This document shows, piece after piece, positions 1 to 56,872 of a stretch of 64,000 bases of DNA. A model generated the notes under the pieces. The model did no database searches. It saw nothing but the letters and a program-made list of their open reading frames with translations, and had not been told where the DNA came from. Numbering within the stretch: position 1 is the stretch's first letter; each line of letters starts with the position of its first letter. A program made the position numbers and the translations under genes. The DNA is taken from NCBI RefSeq assembly GCF_053078305.1, contig NZ_CP166879.1. One strand, given 5' to 3'.

Positions 1-222
1 CTGTGGGTCCCCAATTTCGGTGTCCAGGAATACATGGGTTATTCCGAACAAATGCTCGAAGTCTTCCCGCACAACTGGACTTTCGATAACGGCTATATGC
101 ATCCGGGAGACAAACCGGGTCTTGGCATCGAATTCGATGAAAAGCTGGCGGCGAAATATCCCTATGAACCTGCTTATCTGCCAGTCGCACGTCTGGAAGA
201 TGGCACGCTGTGGAACTGGTAA
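1..222 (+). CDS. rspA: RspA starvation-sensing protein (enolase-superfamily dehydratase), C-terminal part; 5' end outside window
   Basis: Frame open to window start; C-terminus ...[34 protein letters not shown]; immediately followed by rspB as in E. coli. Confidence 0.8.
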
Positions 223-233
223 GGAGTAAGATA

Positions 234-1253
234 ATGAAAAGCATATTAATTGAAAAACCGAATCAACTGGCGATTGTCGAACGTGAAATACCCACCCCGT
301 CAGCGGGTGAAGTTCGAGTAAAAGTAAAACTTGCCGGAATTTGTGGTTCAGATAGCCATATTTATCGTGGGCATAATCCTTTTGCGAAATATCCGCGCGT
401 CATTGGACATGAATTCTTTGGCGTCATTGATGCGGTGGGTGAAGGTGTGGCAAGCGCCAGAGTCGGTGAACGTGTTGCTGTCGATCCGGTGGTCAGCTGT
501 GGTCATTGCTATCCGTGCTCTATAGGTAAGCCGAACGTTTGTACGACACTGGCTGTATTAGGTGTGCACGCTGACGGTGGTTTCAGTGAATATGCCGTGG
601 TTCCGGCAAAAAATGCGTGGAAAATTCCTGAAGCAGTGGCCGATCAATATGCGGTGATGATCGAACCTTTTACCATTGCGGCTAACGTAACCGGTCATGG
701 TCAACCGACTGAAAATGATACCGTTCTGGTTTACGGTGCCGGTCCAATCGGCCTGACGATCGTTCAGGTATTAAAAGGCGTCTATAACGTTAAAAATGTG
801 ATTGTTGCCGATCGCATTGATGAACGACTGGAAAAAGCGAAAGAGAGCGGGGCTGACTGGGTGATTAATAACAGCCAGACACCGCTTGGCGAGATTTTCG
901 CTGAAAAAGGCATCAAGCCGACATTAATTATCGATGCGGCTTGTCATCCTTCTATCTTGAAAGAGGCCGTAACGCTGGCTTCTCCAGCGGCACGTATTGT
1001 ATTGATGGGGTTCTCCAGTGAACCGTCTGAAGTGATTCAGCAAGGAATTACCGGAAAAGAACTCTCTATTTTCTCTTCACGCTTAAATGCAAATAAATTT
1101 CCGGTCGTTATCGACTGGTTAAGTAAAGGGTTAATTAAACCAGAAAAATTAATTACCCATACGTTTGATTTTCAGCATGTTGCTGATGCCATTAGTTTAT
1201 TTGAACAGGATCAAAAACATTGCTGCAAAGTCTTACTCACTTTTTCTGAATAA
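234..1253 (+). CDS. rspB: RspB zinc-dependent alcohol dehydrogenase-family protein
   Basis: MKSILIEKP... with GxCGSD/GHE zinc-ADH motifs; AGGAG RBS before ATG at 234. Confidence 0.85.
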   Translation: MKSILIEKPNQLAIVEREIPTPSAGEVRVKVKLAGICGSDSHIYRGHNPFAKYPRVIGHEFFGVIDAVGEGVASARVGERVAVDPVVSCGHCYPCSIGKPNVCTTLAVLGVHADGGFSEYAVVPAKNAWKIPEAVADQYAVMIEPFTIAANVTGHGQPTENDTVLVYGAGPIGLTIVQVLKGVYNVKNVIVADRIDERLEKAKESGADWVINNSQTPLGEIFAEKGIKPTLIIDAACHPSILKEAVTLASPAARIVLMGFSSEPSEVIQQGITGKELSIFSSRLNANKFPVVIDWLSKGLIKPEKLITHTFDFQHVADAISLFEQDQKHCCKVLLTFSE

Positions 1254-1310
1254 TACCAATAACGGCGAGTAAGTAGTACGCATCTTACCTCTTTTTTAGA
1301 GATAACCATT

Positions 1311-1418
1311 ATGACAATAGAAAAACACGAAAGAAGCACTAAGGATTTGGTGAAAGCAGCGGTATCGGGATGGCTGGGCACTGCGCTTGAATTTATGGAT
1401 TTCAAGAGTCATGCATAG
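1311..1418 (+). pseudogene. 5' fragment of a host transporter-like gene (ydfJ-like) cut off by prophage integration
   Basis: 35-codon ORF MTIEKHERSTKDLVKAAVSGWLGTALEFMDFKSHA ends where prophage starts; identity to ydfJ is from memory. Confidence 0.35.
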
Positions 1419-1446
1419 TAACCATTTGATAAATATTAAATTAATT

Positions 1447-2721
1447 TTACCCCGCCTTGTTATGGGGCATGGTTGGGGCAAACTCGCTTAGCTGTGTATT
1501 TAACAGCGTTACCTGTGCATTATTATTTTCTGACATCCATTTTCCGTACACCTGAAACACCATTTGCGCATCGGCATGCCCCATCTGGTTTGCTATGAAT
1601 GCAGGATTAGCACCAGCTGTTAGCGACCAGCAGGCATAAGTATGTCTCGACTGATATGATTTTCGGTGGCGGAGTCCTGCTCGTTTTATTGCTGCGTCCC
1701 ACATCTGTCTTATTGAGTCAACAGTAAAATGGTCACCATAATTTTTTACTCTCGCTGACACTTCAGGTTGAAAAACAAAGGTGCATTTTTGTTTTTCTGT
1801 TCTGCCATACTCTCTGAGGTGAACATCAATGATATGCTCTTTGCTCAGTCTCGTTAGTGTCATCTGATTCTGGAGGGCCTCGATTGCTGGCTTAATAAGG
1901 TGAATTACACGATTAGTCCCCGCCTGTGTTTTTGGTACCGTAAAATGGTCTTTTGCTAAATTTCTCCTGATCATCATTGTTCCATTTTTCAGATCTATGT
2001 CCTCCCATCCAAGTGCACACAACTCACCAGGGCGAACGCCAGTATAAACAGAAACACACCACAAATTTTTGGCTTGCTGATTTCTGCACGCATCTATAAG
2101 GCGGATAAATTCCTCCCGCGAAAGAGGATCTGGAATGGTTCTTGATTCCTTTAATGGCGATATCCCCTTAAACGGATTATCTGCCAGGTAGCTGTTATCA
2201 ACACCAAACTGGAACACGGCGTTAAGATTTGTCATGTAATTATTTACGGTAACAGCCGATCTCCCGGGTTGTGTAACAATATAGTTACTTTTGGGGATCT
2301 GGTATCCAGTCAGTAACTCTTTACGAACCTCCAGTAATTTTTCTTTATTAATCGATGAGGCAAGATTTTTTTCACCGATTATGCTCAGGATATTTTTGAT
2401 GACGGCACGGTATGTATTGAGTGAACTTCTGGCAACTTCGGCCTCTTTTAGTGCCAGAAATTTTTCGGCCAGTTCACCTATAGTCAAATTTTGTCTGGCT
2501 TCCCCAAATTTTTCCAGATTGTGGGAGTAGGGGAACTGTTTTGCGTAGTCAAAAATCCCCGTTTTTATTGCGTAACAAACAGAAGCGCGTAGTTCACCAG
2601 CGATGCGTCTGTTTTTTACTGTGTCAGGGACACCGAGGTTTTCCCTGACTCTTACGCCTTTATAAACAAACCAGATGCGTAATGTCCCCCCGTGTTTTTC
2701 TACGCCTGTCGGATATTTCAT
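1447..2721 (-). CDS. int: Tyrosine-type phage integrase
   Basis: 424 aa with C-terminal catalytic region (...HTYACWSL...); sits at prophage/host junction. Confidence 0.8.
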   Translation of the reverse strand: MKYPTGVEKHGGTLRIWFVYKGVRVRENLGVPDTVKNRRIAGELRASVCYAIKTGIFDYAKQFPYSHNLEKFGEARQNLTIGELAEKFLALKEAEVARSSLNTYRAVIKNILSIIGEKNLASSINKEKLLEVRKELLTGYQIPKSNYIVTQPGRSAVTVNNYMTNLNAVFQFGVDNSYLADNPFKGISPLKESRTIPDPLSREEFIRLIDACRNQQAKNLWCVSVYTGVRPGELCALGWEDIDLKNGTMMIRRNLAKDHFTVPKTQAGTNRVIHLIKPAIEALQNQMTLTRLSKEHIIDVHLREYGRTEKQKCTFVFQPEVSARVKNYGDHFTVDSIRQMWDAAIKRAGLRHRKSYQSRHTYACWSLTAGANPAFIANQMGHADAQMVFQVYGKWMSENNNAQVTLLNTQLSEFAPTMPHNKAG

Positions 2722-2755: not shown

Positions 2756-3007
2756 TTAAGCAAGGTGACGTCTTGGCCTTGCCGATGCCTGACGCTCGAT
2801 CCAGCGATCAATTTCTTCCAGATTGTAAAAACATGGGCTGTTATCCCACGGCATGCCGTCATGAGCGACATGTTTATACTCTCTCCCTTCCATAAATGAT
2901 TTTTCCCTGGCTTTTTTCAGTGTTCCTTTTTTTATTCCTTTCAGCGCAATTAACTGCTCTTCAGATACCCATTTGCCGGGAGAGACAATCATGATTACTT
3001 CACTCAT
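2756..3007 (-). CDS. Putative excisionase / small DNA-binding protein
   Basis: 83 aa ORF immediately upstream of int on same strand; position-based call. Confidence 0.45.
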   Translation of the reverse strand: MSEVIMIVSPGKWVSEEQLIALKGIKKGTLKKAREKSFMEGREYKHVAHDGMPWDNSPCFYNLEEIDRWIERQASARPRRHLA

Positions 3008-3077: not shown

Positions 3078-5597
3078 TTAAAAATCAGCCTGATTCGGGA
3101 ACAGTTTTTGCCAGATAACTGAAACGTATTTTGCCTGGTAACGCGCATCGTGCAGGGCATTATGGCGTTCACCCTCAAATGTGATGACGTTGCGGGCATC
3201 GAAATCCATCACCAGTCCCAGGGCAACAATCGTTCTTACATCACGATCGTTGTAGTGACGCCACGGGCAGGGGATTTCTTGTCGTTTATATGAACGGCTT
3301 AAAATTACGTTGTCGAAGTTGGCTCCATTTCCCCAGACCTGAACAAAAAACTCACCGGAGTTTTCGTCTATAAATTCCCGTAATTGTAAAAGCGCATCAT
3401 CAAGCGGTATTCGATCAGCTAAAATGGCGGCACGGGCTTCGCCAGAGCGTTGAAGCCACCATTCGATGGTGCTTATGTCTACAGTGCCACCACATGTATC
3501 CATATCAATTATTTTGCTGAATTCTGGCCCCAGTTCTCCGGTTTGCGGATCGAAAAAGACTGCGCCTATTGAGGCTATTGGTGCGTCAGGATTTTTGCCC
3601 ATCGTTTCAAGGTCAATCATCAGGTGATCCCACATTCTGCTGGTGGATGTGCTTTCACGATGACCGTTCACCTTAATTAAGGGATTTGCTGTCTCGCCTG
3701 TTTCATTATTGCCATTGGCATGTTGATCGCCTTCGGTGCACTCCTTGTTCGGGTGTCCGGCACTTTCCATTTCCTCCAGATCTTTTTCCCGGGCTTCATC
3801 CTGGCTTTCTTCGTTGAATGTCTCCTGGTATGTTGCGTCGCCCATCACCGCGCCACAGTCAGGACAGTTGCCGCCACCGCTCTGACCGCAGGCGGTGCAG
3901 ACTTTTTCCTCTTCCTGTTGCGCTACTGGTTCGGATTGTTTCGTTTCTGGCTCGTCTTGTAACGCATTTTGGCTGTTTTGTTCTGCTTTCTGGTCGTTCT
4001 GTTCCGTTTCTTGCTGGTTCTGGTTCACAGAATCGCAGGTTTCAATCCCCTTAACCCATTTCGAATCATTCGGGTCGCTAATCCCTTCAACAAACTCACC
4101 ACGGGAAGCGGCAAGCAATTTGTCGGCATCTGGTCGACTGATGTCTGCTGCCTCCATAATTTTATTTACTTCTTCAGCAGTAACTTTTACCTGTGACTTG
4201 TCATCCAGCGGCTGCGGGTCCTGATGATGTTCAACTGTATCCGCTGCCATTGTTTCAGCCGTTGCCTGTTCATCTGCCATTGCGCCAGATGGCTGCGGTT
4301 TTTCTTCATCATCCTGTTTTCCTTCTTTTGTTACACGCTGAGGGATAGGGGCAGAGGAGCGACCGCAGGCAATATCCACGATTTCCGGATCAGGGTTGGC
4401 ATGATCGGTTTCGGTCAGTACTTTGTTCAGATATTCGGTAACACGGTGGGGAGTAGCCTCGATACCAATTGGTGCTTCTTTCACGGACGCAACTACTATC
4501 GCGCGGGAATAATCCAGGTGACCAGGCATGGCGATGAATTTGTCACGAAAAACAGAAAAGGGCGGCTTATTCTCTGAAACGATTTCTTCAATGCGTTTGG
4601 CGTGTGCCGGATGTGGATTGTAAATATCGATGTCCATTGAACGGGCCAGAACGCCAGCGGCAACGTCACGTTCCACTGACGCATCATCGTGGACAAAACC
4701 TTCACCGCGATCGGTAAGAATTCCTCCGCCAGCATTAGCGCCGGACGGGGTGCGATTGATTTCAGATACGCAATTTCCCTTTGCCCACTCTTTTGTCAAC
4801 AGCCCCTGATCAAGGTAGTCAGTCTTCATCCAGGTGGAAATGAACTTGTCGAATTCTGCCGGGCTGATACGGCGTGTTGTTGCGTGAGTGAATGCCTTTT
4901 CCACCGAATGCGCCAGTCTTCCAAGATGATGGTTTGTCAGCTTATCCAGCTCAGGATGCGAACGTACTGCAGTAAGCAGGCTCTGTATGTTTCCATCTTC
5001 CATATCCATTTCGATGCGGATCACGTCCTTGCGTTGTTCTGGTGTGGCGTGATGTTTGTATTTCTCGTCGAACTCCTGACCAAAGAAGTAGAGGTGCAGG
5101 AAGCGATGGGTAAGACTCAGGGTGGAGACGGGGATTTCACATTCAGGGCAGTCATCGTTGCTGTCCGGGGATTCGCTTTTATCTGCGTTCTCTGTCTGAG
5201 AGTCACTTTGTTCATCGCAGTCACGGCTGACACCTGTAACAGCTTCGCCGCTGGTATTGTCAGTGCTGGCAGGTTTGTCCTGAGCTGAAGGGGAAGGAGC
5301 TATAAATATCATTGTGATACCATCTTCCCCGCCTTTTTCGTAACGGTTGCAGAATTCAGTATCAAACACGCCTTCTGGAGGAAGGTCATTCACAACGGGT
5401 AAATGGACGCGAACAGGTTTTTTAAAGTCGTCCTCGTCATAATCATTATCATCCATTGCGGTAATGCAGCGGGAGATGGCAACAGATAATTTTTTTGCTG
5501 TAGTCCAGTAAAAACCACCTTTAATCCCAAGGCGTTTTCTGACCTTGTCATTTTTTGCTTCGCAATATAGTGCAAAAGTTTCTTTATCAGTGCTCAT
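3078..5597 (-). CDS. Large phage exonuclease with C-terminal DnaQ-like 3'-5' exonuclease domain
   Basis: 839 aa; C-terminus MIDLETMG...FDNVIL...HNALHDARY (DEDDh-like); acidic low-complexity linker and a Cys4 motif CTACG..CPDCG. Confidence 0.6.
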   Translation of the reverse strand: MSTDKETFALYCEAKNDKVRKRLGIKGGFYWTTAKKLSVAISRCITAMDDNDYDEDDFKKPVRVHLPVVNDLPPEGVFDTEFCNRYEKGGEDGITMIFIAPSPSAQDKPASTDNTSGEAVTGVSRDCDEQSDSQTENADKSESPDSNDDCPECEIPVSTLSLTHRFLHLYFFGQEFDEKYKHHATPEQRKDVIRIEMDMEDGNIQSLLTAVRSHPELDKLTNHHLGRLAHSVEKAFTHATTRRISPAEFDKFISTWMKTDYLDQGLLTKEWAKGNCVSEINRTPSGANAGGGILTDRGEGFVHDDASVERDVAAGVLARSMDIDIYNPHPAHAKRIEEIVSENKPPFSVFRDKFIAMPGHLDYSRAIVVASVKEAPIGIEATPHRVTEYLNKVLTETDHANPDPEIVDIACGRSSAPIPQRVTKEGKQDDEEKPQPSGAMADEQATAETMAADTVEHHQDPQPLDDKSQVKVTAEEVNKIMEAADISRPDADKLLAASRGEFVEGISDPNDSKWVKGIETCDSVNQNQQETEQNDQKAEQNSQNALQDEPETKQSEPVAQQEEEKVCTACGQSGGGNCPDCGAVMGDATYQETFNEESQDEAREKDLEEMESAGHPNKECTEGDQHANGNNETGETANPLIKVNGHRESTSTSRMWDHLMIDLETMGKNPDAPIASIGAVFFDPQTGELGPEFSKIIDMDTCGGTVDISTIEWWLQRSGEARAAILADRIPLDDALLQLREFIDENSGEFFVQVWGNGANFDNVILSRSYKRQEIPCPWRHYNDRDVRTIVALGLVMDFDARNVITFEGERHNALHDARYQAKYVSVIWQKLFPNQADF

Positions 5598-14643: not shown

Positions 14644-14961
14644 TCAGGATATTACCTGGATCCCGTTTTTCTCGACAACTGAAAGAAGCCGAAGAGCTGC
14701 ACCTCCCGGGCGTTTCACTCCTCGTTCCCAGTCTGATATCAGGTTTTTACTGACGTTGAGGTATCTGGCAAAAACAGGTTGAGACAGATGCTCTCGTTCT
14801 CGCAGTGCACGGATCCTTTCTGGAGACATTACCGGCGCAGGCTGAAGACAAGTTTCATCGAATTCGCGCATAGTTTGTTTTGTGATTGCACCGATATCAT
14901 GGAGTGACTCCATCATTTCATGTACAGATGCAAGTGCATCACTGCGGTAATTTTTACTCAT
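14644..14961 (-). CDS. HTH (XRE-type) antitoxin of type II TA pair
   Basis: 105 aa, C-terminal HTH; overlaps upstream toxin gene by 8 nt. Confidence 0.65.
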   Translation of the reverse strand: MSKNYRSDALASVHEMMESLHDIGAITKQTMREFDETCLQPAPVMSPERIRALREREHLSQPVFARYLNVSKNLISDWERGVKRPGGAALRLLSVVEKNGIQVIS

Positions 14962-15325
14962 TGGGTACCTCCGTGAACTGGCCTTGTTGAATCAATTGTG
15001 CCAGCTGTTCATCAGTAAGATTGAGGACATGGGGAGCGGCTTTTCGAAAAGCATTTTCCTCTATAGCAGTGATATTCTCTCGTTCATTCTTTGCGTATGC
15101 GTAGATGAAAAAGGCTTTTTCTGCAACGCGGTAAAAAATTATTGTCCGGTAACCGCCTGATTTTCCGCCACCACTTCGGGCTAATCTTTGTTTAATGACA
15201 CCACTACCCAAATTTGCGGATATGATCCCCTTATCGGCCAGCTCCACGATTTTGCGCAGCGATTTATCGGAAATCCGATGTTTTCGGGCGAAACGTTCAA
15301 ACCAGGCGTTTTTGAAAATTCGCAT
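14954..15325 (-). CDS. RelE/ParE-superfamily toxin (HigB-like)
   Basis: 123 aa; ...GGYRTIIFYR...FIYAYAKNEREN...; toxin-first gene order. Confidence 0.65.
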   Translation of the reverse strand: MRIFKNAWFERFARKHRISDKSLRKIVELADKGIISANLGSGVIKQRLARSGGGKSGGYRTIIFYRVAEKAFFIYAYAKNERENITAIEENAFRKAAPHVLNLTDEQLAQLIQQGQFTEVPNE

Positions 15326-48470: not shown

Positions 48471-48953
48471 ATGGCGATAAAAGGGCTTGATCAGGCGATT
48501 GATAATCTGAGCCGGGTTCGTAAAAACGCCATTCCTGCTGCTTCAGCAATGGCCATTAACCGCGTGGCCACAACGGCAATAAATCAGTCTGCGTCACAGG
48601 TTGCCCGTGAGACAAAGGTACGCCGGAAACTGGTAAAGGAAAGGGCCAGGCTGAAAAGGGCCACGGTAAAAAATCCGCAGGCCAGAATCAAAGTTAACCG
48701 GGGGGATTTGCCTGTAATCAGGCTGGGTAATGCGCGGGTTGTCCTGTCCCGACGCAGGCGACGTAAAAAGGGGCAGCGTTCATCCCTGAAAGGTGGCGGC
48801 AGTGTGCTTGTGGTGGGTAACCGTCGCATTCCCGGCGCGTTTATTCAGCAACTGAAAAATGGGCGGTGGCATGTCATGCAGCGTGTGGCCGGGAAAAACC
48901 GTTACCCCATTGATGTGGTAAAAATCCCGATGGCGGTGCCTGTAACCAGGTAA
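48471..48953 (+). pseudogene. Minor tail protein Z-like, truncated at codon ~157
   Basis: Near-identical to lambda gpZ up to ...VVKIPMAVP then diverges and stops; lambda gpZ is ~190 aa. Confidence 0.75.
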
Positions 48954-49245
48954 ATCATTTGATACCGACAAGGGTTTTAGTGAAAGGAGGTGAAATCACC
49001 TGTAAGATACTGAAATAAAACAGGTGATCGATGATTCTGGAGGTTGTTTAGTTTTGATACTGATTAAATAAAATCCGGTATAAAATTAAGGTATCGGCAA
49101 CAAATTTGATACTGCACATACTGCTTATGGACGTTTTTAAAAGTACTTAAAATGTCTTTTATGCTAAAAAGTTTATATCAATATCGATCTGGTCACAAAT
49201 CAAGTTGAAAGTGCTCGCTAAGTGCATAGCCTGGGCTTCATGGGG
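48941..49245 (+). repeat. Putative Mu-like left end (attL) with repeated TTTGATACYG motifs
   Basis: Motif at least four times in about 200 bp; begins 5'-TG where Z homology ends. Confidence 0.45.
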
Positions 49246-49764
49246 TTACGCTTTGGCTTCTTTATGGGTTAAATTGAAATGATGCTCCTTGGTTTCATCT
49301 CCCTCGAAAATCTCTCTAACCTTTTGATCTGATAAATTATTAAGGCTCAATGCTGCCAGGCGTCGAATACCTGTTAAAGCGATCAACTCTTGATTCTCTT
49401 GATTGCAGAATTCCAGCAATTTTTCTACCCCTTTCCTTCTCAAGGTGTAAATAACTAATTCTTGCTCTTCTTGGCTCAAAGTGTCGATGAGTTCGAGCAA
49501 CTCGCTATTGCCACCGTTCTTTTGAGGGGGCTGGTGTTTTATTTCTGCACTACCTGTAATGATGGAAACAACATGTGCAGGTAAGTCGCTTAAACGGTAG
49601 GCAAATGCTCTCCCTCTGATACCAGGTGTAGTTACCGAACGTTTTTCCCATCCTTCATTTTTTGCTCGTTTATGAAGCCCAGCCAGAGATGAAGGAAGAC
49701 CTCCAACCCCCAACAAGTCACTGGCAAGGATCCATTCTTGGTCAAGGATCATATCAAACTCCAT
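49246..49764 (-). CDS. Mu c-like repressor
   Basis: N-terminal ...LPSSLAGLHKRAK... domain shared with the transposase N-terminus. Confidence 0.7.
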   Translation of the reverse strand: MEFDMILDQEWILASDLLGVGGLPSSLAGLHKRAKNEGWEKRSVTTPGIRGRAFAYRLSDLPAHVVSIITGSAEIKHQPPQKNGGNSELLELIDTLSQEEQELVIYTLRRKGVEKLLEFCNQENQELIALTGIRRLAALSLNNLSDQKVREIFEGDETKEHHFNLTHKEAKA

Positions 49765-49981
49765 TTGATATTAACTTTTGTTTATATCTTTTATGCGGTT
49801 TATTTCAAAAATAACTCAATAAAAAACAAATAGATACAGAGCAAATTTAAAAATTTGAAATTAACCAGTTGATATTTACTAAGTTAATATCTAACATATC
49901 AAACATACACTAGTGAGTAACTCAATAGAGTAGCACACATGAGTAATAAAGTTTGCCATAGAAAGTACACAGGGGGCCATT

Positions 49982-50227
49982 GTGAGTCTTATTGAAGATT
50001 GGTCTTCCGCCGATATAAAGGCAGCCTTAGAAAAACGCGATACCAATTTGTCACGTTTATCAAGGGAAAATAATTTGCAGCCTAGGACTTTGGGTAATGC
50101 TTTGCGAGTTCCCTACCCTAAAGGTGAAAAGATAATTGCTAGGGCTATAGGTGTAGAGCCACAGGTTATTTGGCCTACTAGATATGAACGACGTGCGCGG
50201 AGGAAATATGTGGGTTGCAATGACTGA
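49982..50227 (+). CDS. ner: Ner-like DNA-binding regulator
   Basis: 81 aa; ...LSRLSRENNLQPRTLGNAL...KGEKIIARAIGVEPQVIWPTRY. Confidence 0.7.
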   Translation: MSLIEDWSSADIKAALEKRDTNLSRLSRENNLQPRTLGNALRVPYPKGEKIIARAIGVEPQVIWPTRYERRARRKYVGCND

Positions 50228-52292
50228 ATTGATTTCATTCAGTGACCTACCTAGTTCTTTGGCAGGTCTGCACAAAAAAGCAAAGAGGGAAGCGTGGAAA
50301 ACGCGGCTAAAACCAGGGGTAAAAGGGAAAGTTTTAGAGTGTGAAATAGGAGCTTTGCCTTTAACTGTTCAGCAGGCAGTACGCGAACGCCATGCCCTGC
50401 AACTGATGACGCAAAAAGCCGATGAATCACCGGCTCCGGTGGTGACAAAGGCCAGACGCTCACCTGCCGTGGTTGATGCGGTGGAGGCATATCGCGGATC
50501 ACCCCAACTGATGGTCGAACGCCTCAATGCCCTGACTGAAAATCAGCGCCAGGTGGCTGATGCACGAATCGCGATCGTCAGCGAAGTTCTGAAAGTCGCG
50601 CAACAACCTGGTTTCAGCTGTGCGAAGGCTATCCGGTTTATCGTTGACAACCTGGCACGTTCGCAGTTGGACGAGCGCATTGTGGCAATGGTTGAGACGG
50701 CGAACGCCAAAAAGGGAAACAGCCGCGCGTTAAGTGAAATCACGCTGAAACGCTGGATTGCGGCCTTTAACAAGGCGCAGAACGCCGCTGAACGCCTGCT
50801 TTTACTGGCACCGGGTAAGCGCCAGGAAATAAAAGCCGAAGATATTAACTGGCTGCCCGAATTTCTGGCGCAGTATCGCCAGTCAAACGGCCGACCAATG
50901 ACCGAGGCTTACGAGGATTTTGTCGCTGAATGGCAGCACCGGCACGCCGATGAGCCTTATATGCTCGATATCATGCCGTCTTATGACACCATTCGCCGCG
51001 CAATGAAGAAACTGCCGGAAGTGGTGAAACAAAAAGGCCGGGTGACCGGCAGTGAATACCGCCAGCTTGAGGGATTCACGCGCCGCGACTGGTCAAAAAT
51101 GCCGGTGAATTATGTCTGGATTGGTGACGGTCACGGCATGAAGCTGAAATGCGCACACCCGGTTCACGGTCGGCCATTTGCACCGGAAGTGACCTTTGTT
51201 ATCGACGGTGGCACGCGCTTTGTGGTGGGCTGGAGCCTTGACCTGGCTGAAAATGTTTTCGCCGTAGCCGGTGCCATACAGCACGGCATTCGCCATCACG
51301 GCAAACCGTTTCTGTATTACTCGGATAACGGCTCCGGGGAAACCGCCGACATCCTGGATAAGGAGGTTGTGGGGATACTGCCGCGACTGGGGATTAATCA
51401 CCCGACCGGGATTGCCGGTAATCCGCAGGGACGAGGCATTATCGAACGGCTTAACCGCACATTACCGATGCGCATAGCCCGTAAATACCGCACCTATTTC
51501 GGGAAAGGTGCAGATCGCGAGACGTTACGCAAAACCAACCGCGATTTACGCTCGGCATTTACTGCCCTGCAACAGGGCAAACGGCTGAACGCCCGGCAGC
51601 AGTCAGCGATGCGTGATTTACCGTCCTGGTCTGAACTGATTGATGCCATTCGTGACGGTGTTGAGTGGTACAACAACCGGCCGCACGATGAATTACCGGT
51701 GAAGCCGAACGGCAAGCATTACAGCCCGGCGGAGTTCAGAAAAAAACGCCTGGCGGAAGAGGACACGGAAATTGAATGGCTGTCCGATGTTGAGCTGCGG
51801 GATATGTTCCGGCCGATGGTGGAACGCCCTGTAAGACGCTGTGAAATACGCTGGCTGAATAATATTTACTACGCGCCCGAGCTGCGTGACGAGCATGGTC
51901 GTAAGGTGCTTATCAGCTATGACATTCATGATGCCGAACGAATTACCGTACGTCGCCTGGATGGCAGCGTGATTTGCGAGGCGGTATGGGACGGTAATAA
52001 ACGCGAAGCCTTCCCGGTTAGCGCGGAATACTACAAACAGCAGCAACGCCTTAAAGGCATGCGTAAACGCGCAGAGGAAAAAATCCGTGATGCCGAGGAT
52101 GAGGTTGTCAACGTGCTGGAGCACAAGCCGCAGGAGCCCTGGCTGGAAAACATATACCGCCCTGTGGGTAATACGGTGACCGTTCAGCAACCGGTCGCTG
52201 ACGATGAACCTGATGAAGAATACGAGCGTAATTTCCAGCGGGGATTGCAGTTGCTGGAAGCGAAATTAAAAGAAAATGACCCGCTGGCCTGA
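50208..52292 (+). CDS. MuA-like DDE transposase
   Basis: About 695 aa; repressor-like N-terminal domain; GGAGG RBS; start overlaps ner. Confidence 0.85.
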   Translation: MWVAMTELISFSDLPSSLAGLHKKAKREAWKTRLKPGVKGKVLECEIGALPLTVQQAVRERHALQLMTQKADESPAPVVTKARRSPAVVDAVEAYRGSPQLMVERLNALTENQRQVADARIAIVSEVLKVAQQPGFSCAKAIRFIVDNLARSQLDERIVAMVETANAKKGNSRALSEITLKRWIAAFNKAQNAAERLLLLAPGKRQEIKAEDINWLPEFLAQYRQSNGRPMTEAYEDFVAEWQHRHADEPYMLDIMPSYDTIRRAMKKLPEVVKQKGRVTGSEYRQLEGFTRRDWSKMPVNYVWIGDGHGMKLKCAHPVHGRPFAPEVTFVIDGGTRFVVGWSLDLAENVFAVAGAIQHGIRHHGKPFLYYSDNGSGETADILDKEVVGILPRLGINHPTGIAGNPQGRGIIERLNRTLPMRIARKYRTYFGKGADRETLRKTNRDLRSAFTALQQGKRLNARQQSAMRDLPSWSELIDAIRDGVEWYNNRPHDELPVKPNGKHYSPAEFRKKRLAEEDTEIEWLSDVELRDMFRPMVERPVRRCEIRWLNNIYYAPELRDEHGRKVLISYDIHDAERITVRRLDGSVICEAVWDGNKREAFPVSAEYYKQQQRLKGMRKRAEEKIRDAEDEVVNVLEHKPQEPWLENIYRPVGNTVTVQQPVADDEPDEEYERNFQRGLQLLEAKLKENDPLA

Positions 52293-52363
52293 AATAAAAA
52301 AATAACCCGAGCGGCGACTCAGGTTATTTGATTAAACAAGGTATCAAATGAAAGGTTAATAAT

Positions 52364-53296
52364 ATGACTGATATTAACGATGTAATCAAGACCATTGATG
52401 AACTTATTGATGGCGGCGTACTGACGCAGTATGCCATCGCCAGAGAGGCGGGAATTTCCGACGGCACATTATCGGCTTTCCGTAAGGGAAAATATAAAGG
52501 CGATAACGCTGCTGTGGCTGCTTCCCTGCGTTCCTGGTATGAGAACTGGAATAAACAAAGCGCACTGCCGGAACCGCCGCAGTTTGTGGAAACGCAGACA
52601 GTCCAGGAGCTGCGCACACTGTTTCAGGCGGTTCGTCTGATGGGCTGTATTAACGTTATTGTGGGCGTACCGGGTGTGGGTAAAACGGCCACTGCCCGTA
52701 ATTACTGCCAGGAGCAACCAAACACCTGGATGATCACCCTGTCACCCGCGCACTCCAGCGTCACGGAGTGTCTGCTGGAGCTGGCCGATGCGCTGGGGAT
52801 TGATTACACCCGCGCGAACAAAGGGGCATTATCCCGCGCCATCCGCCGTCGCCTGATGGGAACGCGTGGACTGGTGATTGTGGATGAGGCGGATCATCTT
52901 GGTATTGACGGTCTGGAGCAACTCCGGGCAATTCAGGACGCCACGGGGATCGGGATGGTGCTTATTGGTAACCCGCGCGGATTGTTTAAAGGTGGACGCC
53001 GCGCCTTTGATGATTTATCGCGCCTGTTCAGCCGTCTTGCCCGTACAAAACAACTTCGCAAGGCCAAAAAGGCGGATGTGCTGGCCATTGCCAGTGCGTG
53101 GGGGATCAGTGGTGAGGCCGAGCTGGCCGTCATGCAGGCTATCGCTGAAAAGCCGGGAGCGTTACGCGTTCTGACACATACGCTTAACCAGGCGTGGCTC
53201 ACCGCCAGCGGTGAAGGCGCGGCGCTGACAGAAAAACATATTAATGCGGCCTTTAAAGAGGTTTATACCAACCCTGAATTACTCTCACAGGTGTGA
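52364..53296 (+). CDS. MuB-like AAA+ ATPase
   Basis: Walker A VGVPGVGKT, Walker B VIVDEADHL. Confidence 0.85.
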   Translation: MTDINDVIKTIDELIDGGVLTQYAIAREAGISDGTLSAFRKGKYKGDNAAVAASLRSWYENWNKQSALPEPPQFVETQTVQELRTLFQAVRLMGCINVIVGVPGVGKTATARNYCQEQPNTWMITLSPAHSSVTECLLELADALGIDYTRANKGALSRAIRRRLMGTRGLVIVDEADHLGIDGLEQLRAIQDATGIGMVLIGNPRGLFKGGRRAFDDLSRLFSRLARTKQLRKAKKADVLAIASAWGISGEAELAVMQAIAEKPGALRVLTHTLNQAWLTASGEGAALTEKHINAAFKEVYTNPELLSQV

Positions 53297-53520
53297 TTAT
53301 GGCGGTATTTAATATTCCTGATATTTACGGACGCTTTTACCTGGTTAATTTCGATAACGTGAAGGTGATTTCACTGGCCGAAAATAAAGAATGTGGCGAT
53401 TTACTTTTTGAATTTAATGACCGCACACGAATGGTGATATCTGCCGGACTTGATCGCGAAGGTGCGACAGACGTTTACAGCGGAATATGCCGTTCTGTTG
53501 GTGCGAAACAAGTCAGCTAA
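53293..53520 (+). CDS. Small early protein (kil position)
   Basis: 75 aa immediately after B; positional. Confidence 0.35.
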   Translation: MIMAVFNIPDIYGRFYLVNFDNVKVISLAENKECGDLLFEFNDRTRMVISAGLDREGATDVYSGICRSVGAKQVS

Positions 53521-53787
53521 ATGAGGTGTTATATGAATATGCAATCCTGCGGTAACAAAATGAATTTATTCGACTCCCTGAACAGCGCGCGCCGTCTGAC
53601 CGAACTTGCCGGTGCGGTACTGGAACGCAGTAAGCGCTATCCGCAACGTTTTGCACTGAAAACCACGCCGCCGGTAGGCAACGTGCAGGGAACCGGTGAA
53701 ATTGAAATCACCATACAGACCAACGGCCTGCGCCGCCGTGTGAAGGCCACCCGCATCAGCGGCTGCACGGTTTACTGGGAGGTGTGA
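53521..53787 (+). CDS. Hypothetical early protein
   Basis: 88 aa. Confidence 0.3.
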   Translation: MRCYMNMQSCGNKMNLFDSLNSARRLTELAGAVLERSKRYPQRFALKTTPPVGNVQGTGEIEITIQTNGLRRRVKATRISGCTVYWEV

Positions 53788-53864
53788 GGTGAAAAAAAAA
53801 TCTCATTGCATGGGCGTGGTCGAGTGGTCTTATTGAGTTTGGTTACGTCCTGCCGGAAGGTGCA

Positions 53865-54071
53865 TTGCCGATAGTTGCCGGAAAGCCTGCCACGGTACGG
53901 CATGTGATTGAGGTTATGGCGCGTCATGGACGTGATGAACAGGAGCAGTTACTGGTTCCGGGGATACCGGAAGCGGTGACGGAGGAAGAAGCCTTTAATG
54001 CCATGATTCGGTTCTGCCGTGAGGTCAGACGCCGGGTCAGTTATCCAAACAGAACGAGGACCAGAGGATGA
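53865..54071 (+). CDS. Hypothetical early protein
   Basis: 68 aa. Confidence 0.3.
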   Translation: MPIVAGKPATVRHVIEVMARHGRDEQEQLLVPGIPEAVTEEEAFNAMIRFCREVRRRVSYPNRTRTRG

Positions 54072-54340
54072 GTAAAGTCGTACGCATTATTTTCGAATAC
54101 AAGGAGCACGTTATCCATAAAAACGCGGATGGAACAGTGCGCATGGGGATAAGTCTGGACATACGTTCAACCGGGATAAAGCAGAAAGGTGATGGACCTG
54201 CCATGATTTTTGGGGTGGTTATGCTCGCGGAAAGCAGAGACTTTGCTGAACTTGTGGCAATGAAAGCCAGTGCGCTCATGAAAGATATGAGCATGCGTTC
54301 CGGGGTTATTAAAGGTAATGAATTTAATCAGCAGGGGTAA
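54068..54340 (+). CDS. Hypothetical early protein (paralog A)
   Basis: MSKVVRIIFEYKEHV... Confidence 0.4.
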   Translation: MSKVVRIIFEYKEHVIHKNADGTVRMGISLDIRSTGIKQKGDGPAMIFGVVMLAESRDFAELVAMKASALMKDMSMRSGVIKGNEFNQQG

Positions 54341-54344
54341 TTCC

Positions 54345-54638
54345 ATGAGCAAAGTACGCGTTATTTTTGAATTTAAGCATGTTTCGCATGACGAAAAACC
54401 GGCAGGCAATGACTGTGTTGAAGTGCATGAAAAGATTGGTGTGGATGTAAAAACAGAACGTGATACGAATAACAGGCCGACGTCACTCTGTGACGTTTAT
54501 GTAAGTATTCTCCAGTATCACAGTCCTGAAATTATTCAGTTTCTCTCAGCGGAATTTCAGGCATCTGTACAGGCTTTTGGGGCGGATGCCATCATTAAAC
54601 GCCACCGCGTGCATAAAGCATCAGGCACACTGCAATAA
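54345..54638 (+). CDS. Hypothetical early protein (paralog B)
   Basis: MSKVRVIFEFKHVSH...; same N-terminal signature as previous gene. Confidence 0.4.
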   Translation: MSKVRVIFEFKHVSHDEKPAGNDCVEVHEKIGVDVKTERDTNNRPTSLCDVYVSILQYHSPEIIQFLSAEFQASVQAFGADAIIKRHRVHKASGTLQ

Positions 54639-54649
54639 GGAAAAACAAA

Positions 54650-55180
54650 ATGGCAAAACGCGTTACAAAATTAAAGGCCGCAGCAGAGGCGGCACCGCAG
54701 ACCCGTGAAGAGGTCAGCCGCGATATCCGCACCCTGGGCGATATTCAGCGAGAGGCGCTGCGCCTGGAAACAGCGATGAATGATGAAGTGGCAGAAATCA
54801 CCGCCCGTTATACGCCGCAGATTGAAAACCTTAAAAAAGAAATCAAAGTGCTTTTTAAGGGGATTCAGGACTGGTGCAAAACCAACCGTGATGAGCTGAC
54901 GAACGGCGGCAAAACCAAAACTGCCAATCTGACCACCGGAACAGTGTCATGGCGGCTGGGAAATCCATCATGCAGCGTCAGCCGTGATGTGGAAGGTGTG
55001 ATTGAAATGCTGCGCCGTATGGGGCTTGAGCGATTCATCCGCACGAAAGAGGAAGTGAACAAGGAAGCGGTCCTGGCGGAGCCGGATGCAGTGAAAGGCA
55101 TTGCCGGTATTAAGGTGAATAAAGGCGCTGAAAGTTTTTATGTCGAGCCTTTTGAACAGGACGCCGGACTGAATAAATAA
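54650..55180 (+). CDS. gam: Gam-like host-nuclease inhibitor
   Basis: ...IGDIQREALRLETAMNDEVAEI...ANRDELTNGGKTKTANL...RFIRTKEEVNKEA... matches Mu Gam. Confidence 0.85.
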   Translation: MAKRVTKLKAAAEAAPQTREEVSRDIRTLGDIQREALRLETAMNDEVAEITARYTPQIENLKKEIKVLFKGIQDWCKTNRDELTNGGKTKTANLTTGTVSWRLGNPSCSVSRDVEGVIEMLRRMGLERFIRTKEEVNKEAVLAEPDAVKGIAGIKVNKGAESFYVEPFEQDAGLNK

Positions 55181-55277
55181 CACCGCATTAAATCTTTAAA
55201 TATCACATCGTTTTAAGTATGGCGCTCGCGTCAGGGGACTGTCTGCGCCTGTAAACTGAAAATAAGGAACAGGATAT

Positions 55278-55820
55278 ATGGCATATTTTTATTTCAAATT
55301 AGACCGTGTGCAGACAAATAAATATTTCACCAAATATCAACAGACTGTTTTACCGCTACGCAACAGTATTCTTCGGGCATTACTGAAAAATACAGGCGCT
55401 GCCGGATTGCGCTTAAAGCCGTTTGCCATGGACGTAATCAGTGAGTTTTATTTTTCTGGTACTCTGCCTGCGGGCTGGCGTAAGCGCGATGATGTGGCTT
55501 TTATCGGGGACGGACCGTGCTTTATTGCCAGACCTGATGAGTCATGCCCTGAAGGACCGGCGATTGCCGCAATGATTGAAGCCGCTGAACGCGAGTTAAG
55601 AAAGCGTCCTGATTTCCTTGTCTGGCTCTGTGAAAAGCTGGGGGTAATGAGAATCCCCTCCATGTTTAACATGGACTCCTGGTGGACCCCGTCGCTCTCC
55701 CGTGATGCCCTGTGCGTGGTGTTTAAAGTAGGCGCTTATGGCAGGGAAATAAAAGGGGGTATTCCTGAAGAATGCCAGGAGATTAAACATTCTGAATATG
55801 TGGCGCTGACGGAGGAATAA
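55278..55820 (+). CDS. Hypothetical early protein
   Basis: 180 aa. Confidence 0.4.
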   Translation: MAYFYFKLDRVQTNKYFTKYQQTVLPLRNSILRALLKNTGAAGLRLKPFAMDVISEFYFSGTLPAGWRKRDDVAFIGDGPCFIARPDESCPEGPAIAAMIEAAERELRKRPDFLVWLCEKLGVMRIPSMFNMDSWWTPSLSRDALCVVFKVGAYGREIKGGIPEECQEIKHSEYVALTEE

Positions 55821-55823
55821 TTC

Positions 55824-56357
55824 ATGATTGATGCAAAAGTGCTTGAAGGGGTTAAAAACTGGCTGAGTATTTACGGGCGTCTGACCTGCGGAGTTCTGGC
55901 TGAAAAAATGAATATGCCGCCATCCTCGATGGTTTATTTTCTGCGTGATGCGGTTGATGCCGGGGTGCTGACGGAATGTAACGGTTTTTATGATATTCCG
56001 CGTCCCCGCCCGGTGCAGCCGGTTCGTCGCAAATGCAGCCAGGAGTCTGCGGCTGATGATGTTCAGTGGTGCAGCTTCAGAAAATCCCTGCCGTGGATTG
56101 AGGGGCATGATATTCCGTCGATGGCGTGGGAATTTGCTCAGGGCATACTGACCTGTGAAACCGTTTATGTGGTGGCTGAAGTTGATGAGCAGGCCATGAA
56201 AGAAGGCGTGCCCCAGTTTGTGATGGCGTATATCGACATACGCCTGGGTGTCATTATCTGCGGTTTAAGCGGCTGGAATATCACCTCGCGCGTTCTGCGT
56301 TACCTGATTGTTGACCGGACGGCCGCGCCTGCCGGGATATCTGCGGAGGTGGCGTAA
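55824..56357 (+). CDS. Hypothetical early protein
   Basis: 177 aa. Confidence 0.4.
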   Translation: MIDAKVLEGVKNWLSIYGRLTCGVLAEKMNMPPSSMVYFLRDAVDAGVLTECNGFYDIPRPRPVQPVRRKCSQESAADDVQWCSFRKSLPWIEGHDIPSMAWEFAQGILTCETVYVVAEVDEQAMKEGVPQFVMAYIDIRLGVIICGLSGWNITSRVLRYLIVDRTAAPAGISAEVA

Positions 56358-56872
56358 TGTTCTTTAAAACATCAAACCCTTCCGCGCTGGCCGCGTGGCA
56401 AAAATATCAGCAGGACTGCCAGAAAGTTAAGGATGAGGCAAAACGCCTTGAGGCCGTGCTGAATGTTGCGTGCCGGTCGGTATTTGTATCCGGTATCAGT
56501 GGCTTTTGTTTTAAAGGGCTGCGCTTTATGGATGACAAATATCCTTTTCATCGCGACTTATGGCGAAAACCGACTGCGTCGAATGGCTGGAGCTGCACAC
56601 CGCGCACATCACGTATTCCCAAAGCCCTGCGCGTTGCCTCTGACGAACTTAACAGTCTGTGGCGTGAATATTCGCCCGTCACGTATGCCAGAACCGATGC
56701 ACTGTTGTTCTGGCTGGGTATTGATTTCTCGGCAATCATGTTTGGCCCTGTGAAGTGGTTCTGCGTTGACGATGTGATTTACCTTGAGTGCGGCGTAAAA
56801 CCCGCAAATCAGAAAATGACCGAAATTCTGTCTGATGAGTTTTATGCTGCTGAAAAGCGAGTCAGGGGGTGA
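56357..56872 (+). CDS. Hypothetical early protein
   Basis: 171 aa, coupled. Confidence 0.4.
   Translation: MFFKTSNPSALAAWQKYQQDCQKVKDEAKRLEAVLNVACRSVFVSGISGFCFKGLRFMDDKYPFHRDLWRKPTASNGWSCTPRTSRIPKALRVASDELNSLWREYSPVTYARTDALLFWLGIDFSAIMFGPVKWFCVDDVIYLECGVKPANQKMTEILSDEFYAAEKRVRG

Follow-up and report, generated by a model that had tools for sequence, protein, structure and literature searches.

The window, by which we mean the whole 64-kb stretch of DNA analysed here, opens in host genes and passes, beyond a short ORF, into a lambdoid prophage that is itself interrupted by a Mu-like one (Table 1). The near-identical locus of FHI_NMBU_10 has rspB annotated at matching coordinates, and the gene is annotated also in TW10690 and RM10466. 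The short ORF has an ATG start and 35 codons plus stop, and is translated as MTIEKHERSTKDLVKAAVSGWLGTALEFMDFKSHA; exactly 28 bp (1419-1446) separate its stop codon from that of the integrase gene. An earlier, sequence-only reading had described this arrangement, and its coordinates and description agree with the ORF list and the Pfam results. A promoter and terminator scan of 1150-1550 returned no terminator and a single weak promoter-like site, located within int, a yield not above that expected from shuffled sequence.

Table 1. Features of the window and the four att sites compared (coordinates are window positions)
Feature	Position	Strand	Description and basis
rspA 3' end (rspA')	1-222		Host gene, opens the window
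rspB	234-1253	+	Zn-dependent oxidoreductase; host gene 5' of ydfJ; ORF list
Fusion ORF	1311-1418	+	31 ydfJ codons, 4 phage codons (KSHA) and stop
Host-derived ydfJ 5' fragment	1311-1403	+	Codons 1-31; alignment to intact TW10690 ydfJ, translations agree
Common att sequence of attL, TGAATTTATGGATTTCAAG	1388-1406	.	attB/attL/attR/attP four-way comparison
Exact 11-bp core, TTATGGATTTC	1393-1403	.	Common to attB and attP; includes ydfJ codon Met29
Phage P' arm of attL	1404-1480	.	Sequence common to phage attP
Lambdoid prophage body, uninterrupted part	1404-48940	.	Early region, replication genes, tRNAs, lysis, head genes up to truncated gene Z
Tyrosine integrase (int)	1447-2721	-	424 aa, apparently full length; Pfam
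Excisionase (xis)	2756-3007	-	83 aa; Pfam DUF1233 'putative excisionase' PF06806, 1.6e-31
Mu-type repressor-like gene	49246-49764	-	Mu-like prophage; Pfam
MuA-like transposase	50184-52292		Mu-like prophage; Pfam
MuB-like ATPase	52364-53296		Mu-like prophage; Pfam
attB			…cgcttGAATTT ATGGATTTC CAGttatattcgc…
attP			…acctgTGAATT ATGGATTTC AAGagtcatgcg…
attL (window, FHI_NMBU_10, K-12)			Left arm from attB, right arm from attP
attR (FHI_NMBU_10, K-12)			Left arm from attP, right arm from attB

In the prophage-free genome TW10690 the gene order is ynfA, rspA, rspB, ydfJ, ydfI, ydfZ, and the intact YdfJ is an MHS-family MFS transporter of 455 aa, encoded by a gene of 1368 nt. Window positions 1-1403 align to the rspA-rspB-ydfJ segment of this genome at 98.4% identity with synteny kept; from 1300 to 1403 the window is identical to the rspB-ydfJ region, and past 1403 the similarity collapses. 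The ORF and YdfJ agree throughout residues 1-31 (31/31 aa; 93/93 nt), which, with the rspA-rspB synteny, bears out the earlier impression of a credible host-protein N-terminus. Of the ORF, the 31 codons up to 1403 are host sequence; the last four codons and the stop (to 1418) are phage, their sequence AAGAGTCATGCATAG being part of the phage P' arm and found also in the attP of mEp460_ev081 and HannyBb. A small gene in its own right, or an ORF that resembles a host N-terminus by chance, would likewise have an ATG start and an uninterrupted frame, but the perfect match to the start of a 455-aa protein, the host synteny upstream and a point of divergence that coincides exactly with the att core leave that explanation a negligible probability. 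By alignment, the 35-codon ORF is the cut-off start of E. coli ydfJ, split by integration of a lambda-like prophage; annotation should enter it not as a gene but as a pseudogene fragment, the 5' part of ydfJ at an attL.

The integrase combines an N-terminal arm-type DNA-binding domain (Arm-DNA-bind_2, PF12167, residues 4-66, 1.2e-22) with a C-terminal tyrosine recombinase catalytic domain (Phage_integrase, PF00589, residues 201-392, 1.3e-18), both above the Pfam cut-offs. The excisionase gene adjoins int; a site-specific integrase of equal length and an excisionase family protein are annotated in the RM10466 and FHI_NMBU_10 loci. At the DNA level the integrase region is ~91.5% identical to those of the GenBank phages mEp460_ev081, HannyBb, Tritos and PhiR42_1. 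The best PDB match of the protein is 6emy Int (E = 2e-10, catalytic-domain alignment), and this single pairwise alignment displays the box I Arg (TGVRPGE), a Lys (PKTQ), the Arg-His pair (SRHT) and a GH…VY near the C-terminus. At about residue 356 the same alignment places a Tyr opposite the first His of the 6emy HxxR (SYQSRHT vs TPHAMRHT). This Tyr is probably a tolerated variant of the family, since the ~91%-identical integrase regions stem from isolated temperate phages, and it is from those regions that we assume the window integrase to be active.

The att sites were compared four ways, with attB from TW10690, attP from two phages (mEp460_ev081 and HannyBb), attL from the window, FHI_NMBU_10 and K-12 MG1655, and attR from the latter two genomes, all lined up on the motif ATGGATTTC. 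The common att sequence can be written as TGAATT(T)ATGGATTTC(C/A)AG, which is one base longer in attB (19 bp) than in attP (18 bp). Its window copy has the host form on the left (TTT) and the phage form on the right (A at 1404). Identity to the host (TW10690) stops at 1403 and the match to free-phage attP starts at 1388; between these breakpoints, TTATGGATTTC is the sole ungapped stretch identical across attB, attP, attL and attR, and strand exchange is for that reason placed within it. The alignment to a prophage-free reference that had been proposed earlier identifies the gene as ydfJ, intact in TW10690; the core comes from the four-way comparison. In K-12 and FHI_NMBU_10 the flanks of attL and attR overlap on attB at TW10690-locus positions 3189-3204 (BLAST), with zero host bases lost.

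The P' arm holds a pair of TGGGGCA motifs, at 1463-1469 and 1474-1480, 11 bp apart, and a repeat search found a similar TGGGGCA pair in the P arm of the HannyBb attP. We infer that these pairs are candidate arm-type binding sites of the integrase; as a family of two copies they could be due to chance. Within the 3' end of int, at 1511-1531, the sequence ACCTGTGCATTATTATTTTCT resembles the left half of attP plus the core (ACCTGTGAATTATGGATTTCA), and HannyBb has an equivalent core-like copy, 86% identical to the HannyBb core and 127 bp away. Such a copy, again a two-member family, could be a secondary site or a chance resemblance in AT-rich DNA.

With a probability of about 0.97, we read 1388-1406 as the attL formed when a lambda-like prophage entered E. 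coli ydfJ near its 5' end. The structure of the junction is exactly that expected for recombination of attP with attB by a tyrosine integrase within ydfJ. Prophage-free genomes have ydfJ intact, flanked by rspB and ydfI, and the switch from host to phage falls inside the att sequence, in keeping with the earlier proposal of integration within a host coding sequence. The left boundary of the prophage can be placed at 1404, and the att sequence at 1388-1406. In the reconstruction that we favour, the integrase would have recombined attP (…TGAATT-ATGGATTTCAAG…) with the chromosomal attB (…TGAATTTATGGATTTCCAG…, spanning ydfJ codons 26-32), with crossover inside the identical 11-bp core; we infer that the reaction was catalysed by the window's own integrase. 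The ydfJ promoter and codons 1-31 stayed at attL, where the P' arm to which they are joined supplies KSHA and a stop and so completes the 35-codon ORF. The gene from Met29, which lies in the core, onward would now lie at the other prophage end, beyond the window, without its promoter and its first 28-31 codons, and the attR of this strain would read phage P arm, TGAATTATGGATTTCCAGTTATATTCGC, ydfJ codons 32-455 and ydfI.

No attR and no remaining part of ydfJ occur in the window: the intact TW10690 locus, compared by BLAST with the full 64 kb, aligns to 1-1403 only. Since the other junction lies outside these 64 kb, and inversions between prophages at ydfJ and ompW are on record (PMC8112680), one might suppose that ydfJ was truncated by a deletion or other rearrangement and that the integrase, for example of a non-phage island, stands alongside by coincidence. 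We consider this highly improbable: the breakpoint falls exactly within a sequence common to attB and to the attP of free phages with a ~91%-identical integrase region, the 47 kb downstream make up a typical lambdoid genome, and an identical attL recurs across thousands of genomes (see below). Moreover, the reciprocal attR is seen in the related genomes K-12 and FHI_NMBU_10, where it carries the complete ydfJ remainder with nothing deleted. A later rearrangement of attR in this strain is possible and would leave the nature of the attL junction unchanged.

We searched 5426 complete E. coli genomes by megablast with window positions 1200-1500, and 5139 of them gave matches. All 301 bases match in 2691 genomes, which have annotated rspB plus integrase and so the same attL. 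Among sampled matches limited to the first ~204-207 bases, most carry the annotation 'ydfJ: MHS family MFS transporter YdfJ'. A second 301-bp probe, centred on attB, found the ydfJ site uninterrupted in 2009/5426 genomes; in the others, as sampled, the ydfJ 3' match starts at probe base 136 (TW10690-locus position 3189), which is the first att base. Homologues of the ORF in prophage-free genomes, on whose existence the earlier suggestion depended, are therefore present, both as the 455-aa gene of TW10690 and at these uninterrupted sites. Judged by the probe matches, most complete E. coli genomes, roughly 60%, have the ydfJ site occupied or bear a remnant there.

The genomes closest to the window are from STEC or bovine isolates, and none of the complete genomes compared equals the window from end to end. 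Over the first 25 kb FHI_NMBU_10 comes nearest (87% coverage, 96.5% identity), while RM10466 is 100% identical over 1200-1500 and only 94% identical over the first 4.2 kb.

The junction is an already known, published site and offers nothing new on mechanism or biology; ydfJ is a long-known integration hotspot, and in STEC it is home to effector-carrying prophages and clusters. Several known systems can be set beside it. (i) The cryptic prophage Qin (Kim) of K-12 lies in ydfJ with an attL identical to that of the window (rspB-ydfJ', ATGGATTTC, P' arm AAGAGTCATGC…) and with an integrase of the same lineage, the two loci being 96% identical across 1200-1500. The likeness to ydfJ and Qin that had been proposed for this locus is a matter of the same junction, which in K-12 stands beside a degraded integrase. 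Qin is a decayed remnant of ~20 kb whose integrase pseudogene is cut by IS2 and whose head and tail genes are lost; in the window element int and xis are full length and lambdoid genes extend over ~47 kb, yet the element is interrupted by a Mu-like prophage. In K-12, ydfJ 'missing N-terminus' is annotated about 20 kb from the Qin attL junction. According to Ramisetty and Sudhakari 2019 (PMC6379469), Qin is integrated at the 5' end of ydfJ and deprives the gene of its promoter and of 28 N-terminal codons; this count for K-12 ydfJ is explained by the core, whose ATG is Met29.

(ii) Lambdoid prophages of STEC at ydfJ ('PPydfJ') share with the window the locus and the att sequence, which was defined by the same comparison of attP, attB, attL and attR; an '18- or 19-bp att sequence' is given for prophages at ydfJ, the locus is reported as occupied by phages in many strains, K-12 included, and attP was recovered by PCR for the prophage at ydfJ of strain 11368 (Nakamura et al. 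2021, PMC8112680, S7 Fig). PPydfJ elements often bear type III effector loci or form tandem clusters, whereas the effector-bearing end of the present prophage falls beyond the 64 kb. (iii) The phages mEp460_ev081, HannyBb, Tritos and PhiR42_1 have an int-xis module at the same ~91.5% identity and an attP (…CCTGTGAATTATGGATTTCAAGAGTCAT…) that matches the phage half of the window attL; these are free, not integrated, phage genomes of 45-49 kb, and the comparison with them covers the int-xis module. (iv) As in phage lambda, a tyrosine integrase with an arm-binding N-terminal domain has an adjacent excisionase, a short core lies between phage arms, and int is beside attP. The core and attB are unlike those of lambda, however, and the window site is in coding sequence, in contrast to the intergenic gal-bio site of lambda. 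The window integrase is only distantly related to integrases with solved structures, and its arm sites are candidates.

It is conceivable, as a long shot, that one of the integration products has gained a function of its own, be it the 35-aa YdfJ(1-31)-KSHA behind the ydfJ promoter or a YdfJ without residues 1-28, promoterless and starting at Met29, that is expressed from a promoter at the phage end. If so, such an acquired function might help to explain why the site is occupied in most sequenced E. coli.

From its start to position 27750 the window is collinear with the prophage at ydfJ of FHI_NMBU_10, which is ~53.5 kb long and is followed by ydfJ ('missing N-terminus') and ydfI. Beyond ~27.7 kb the head genes differ from those of FHI_NMBU_10 and are of lambda type, with Pfam matches to an S49 protease, major capsid protein E, a head-tail attachment protein and gpZ. 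In the stretch 48471-64000, similarity to lambdoid phages stops at 48940, inside the tail gene Z, whose Pfam match covers positions 1-157 of 190, and from 48941 to the end of the window the sequence matches Mu-like prophages. The left end of this second element, at 48941, starts TGTAACC… (TGTAACCAGG) and has three TTTGATAC repeats. The Mu-like insertion in gene Z runs past the end of the window, so that attR, the tail genes of the lambdoid element and the remainder of ydfJ must fall outside the 64 kb; it should leave the lambdoid prophage tail-defective. In a deposited Stx1a prophage (record LC727895.1), a comparable insertion is annotated as 'inserted Bacteriophage Mu-like phage'.

Some further features of the lambdoid part may be recorded. 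Three phage-borne tRNA genes, with anticodons CAT, TCG and TCT, lie at 19758-20009, 3' of a DNA methyltransferase gene, and the first tRNA of the collinear FHI_NMBU_10 cluster is labelled tRNA-Ile. Stx phages carry stx at the position of this tRNA cluster. We considered whether the element is an Stx phage, since its int and that of the EH1535 Stx2a phage are 99% identical, and rejected this: judged by ORF size, nothing that could encode an A subunit lies from the tRNA cluster to the esterase gene, and no stx is annotated in the collinear FHI_NMBU_10 region. An 839-aa protein encoded at 3078-5597 has an N-terminal RecE/exonuclease VIII-like segment and a C-terminal Rv2179c-like 3'-5' exoribonuclease domain, and in FHI_NMBU_10 the homologous region consists of two pieces, an exonuclease gene and a RecE pseudogene. 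On the minus strand at 14644-15325, a 105-aa and a 123-aa ORF overlap; their counterparts in the collinear FHI_NMBU_10 prophage are annotated as a pair of an HTH protein and a RelE/ParE-family toxin. Near that toxin pair the FHI_NMBU_10 prophage has a hokD homologue, an echo of relBE and hokD in K-12 Qin.
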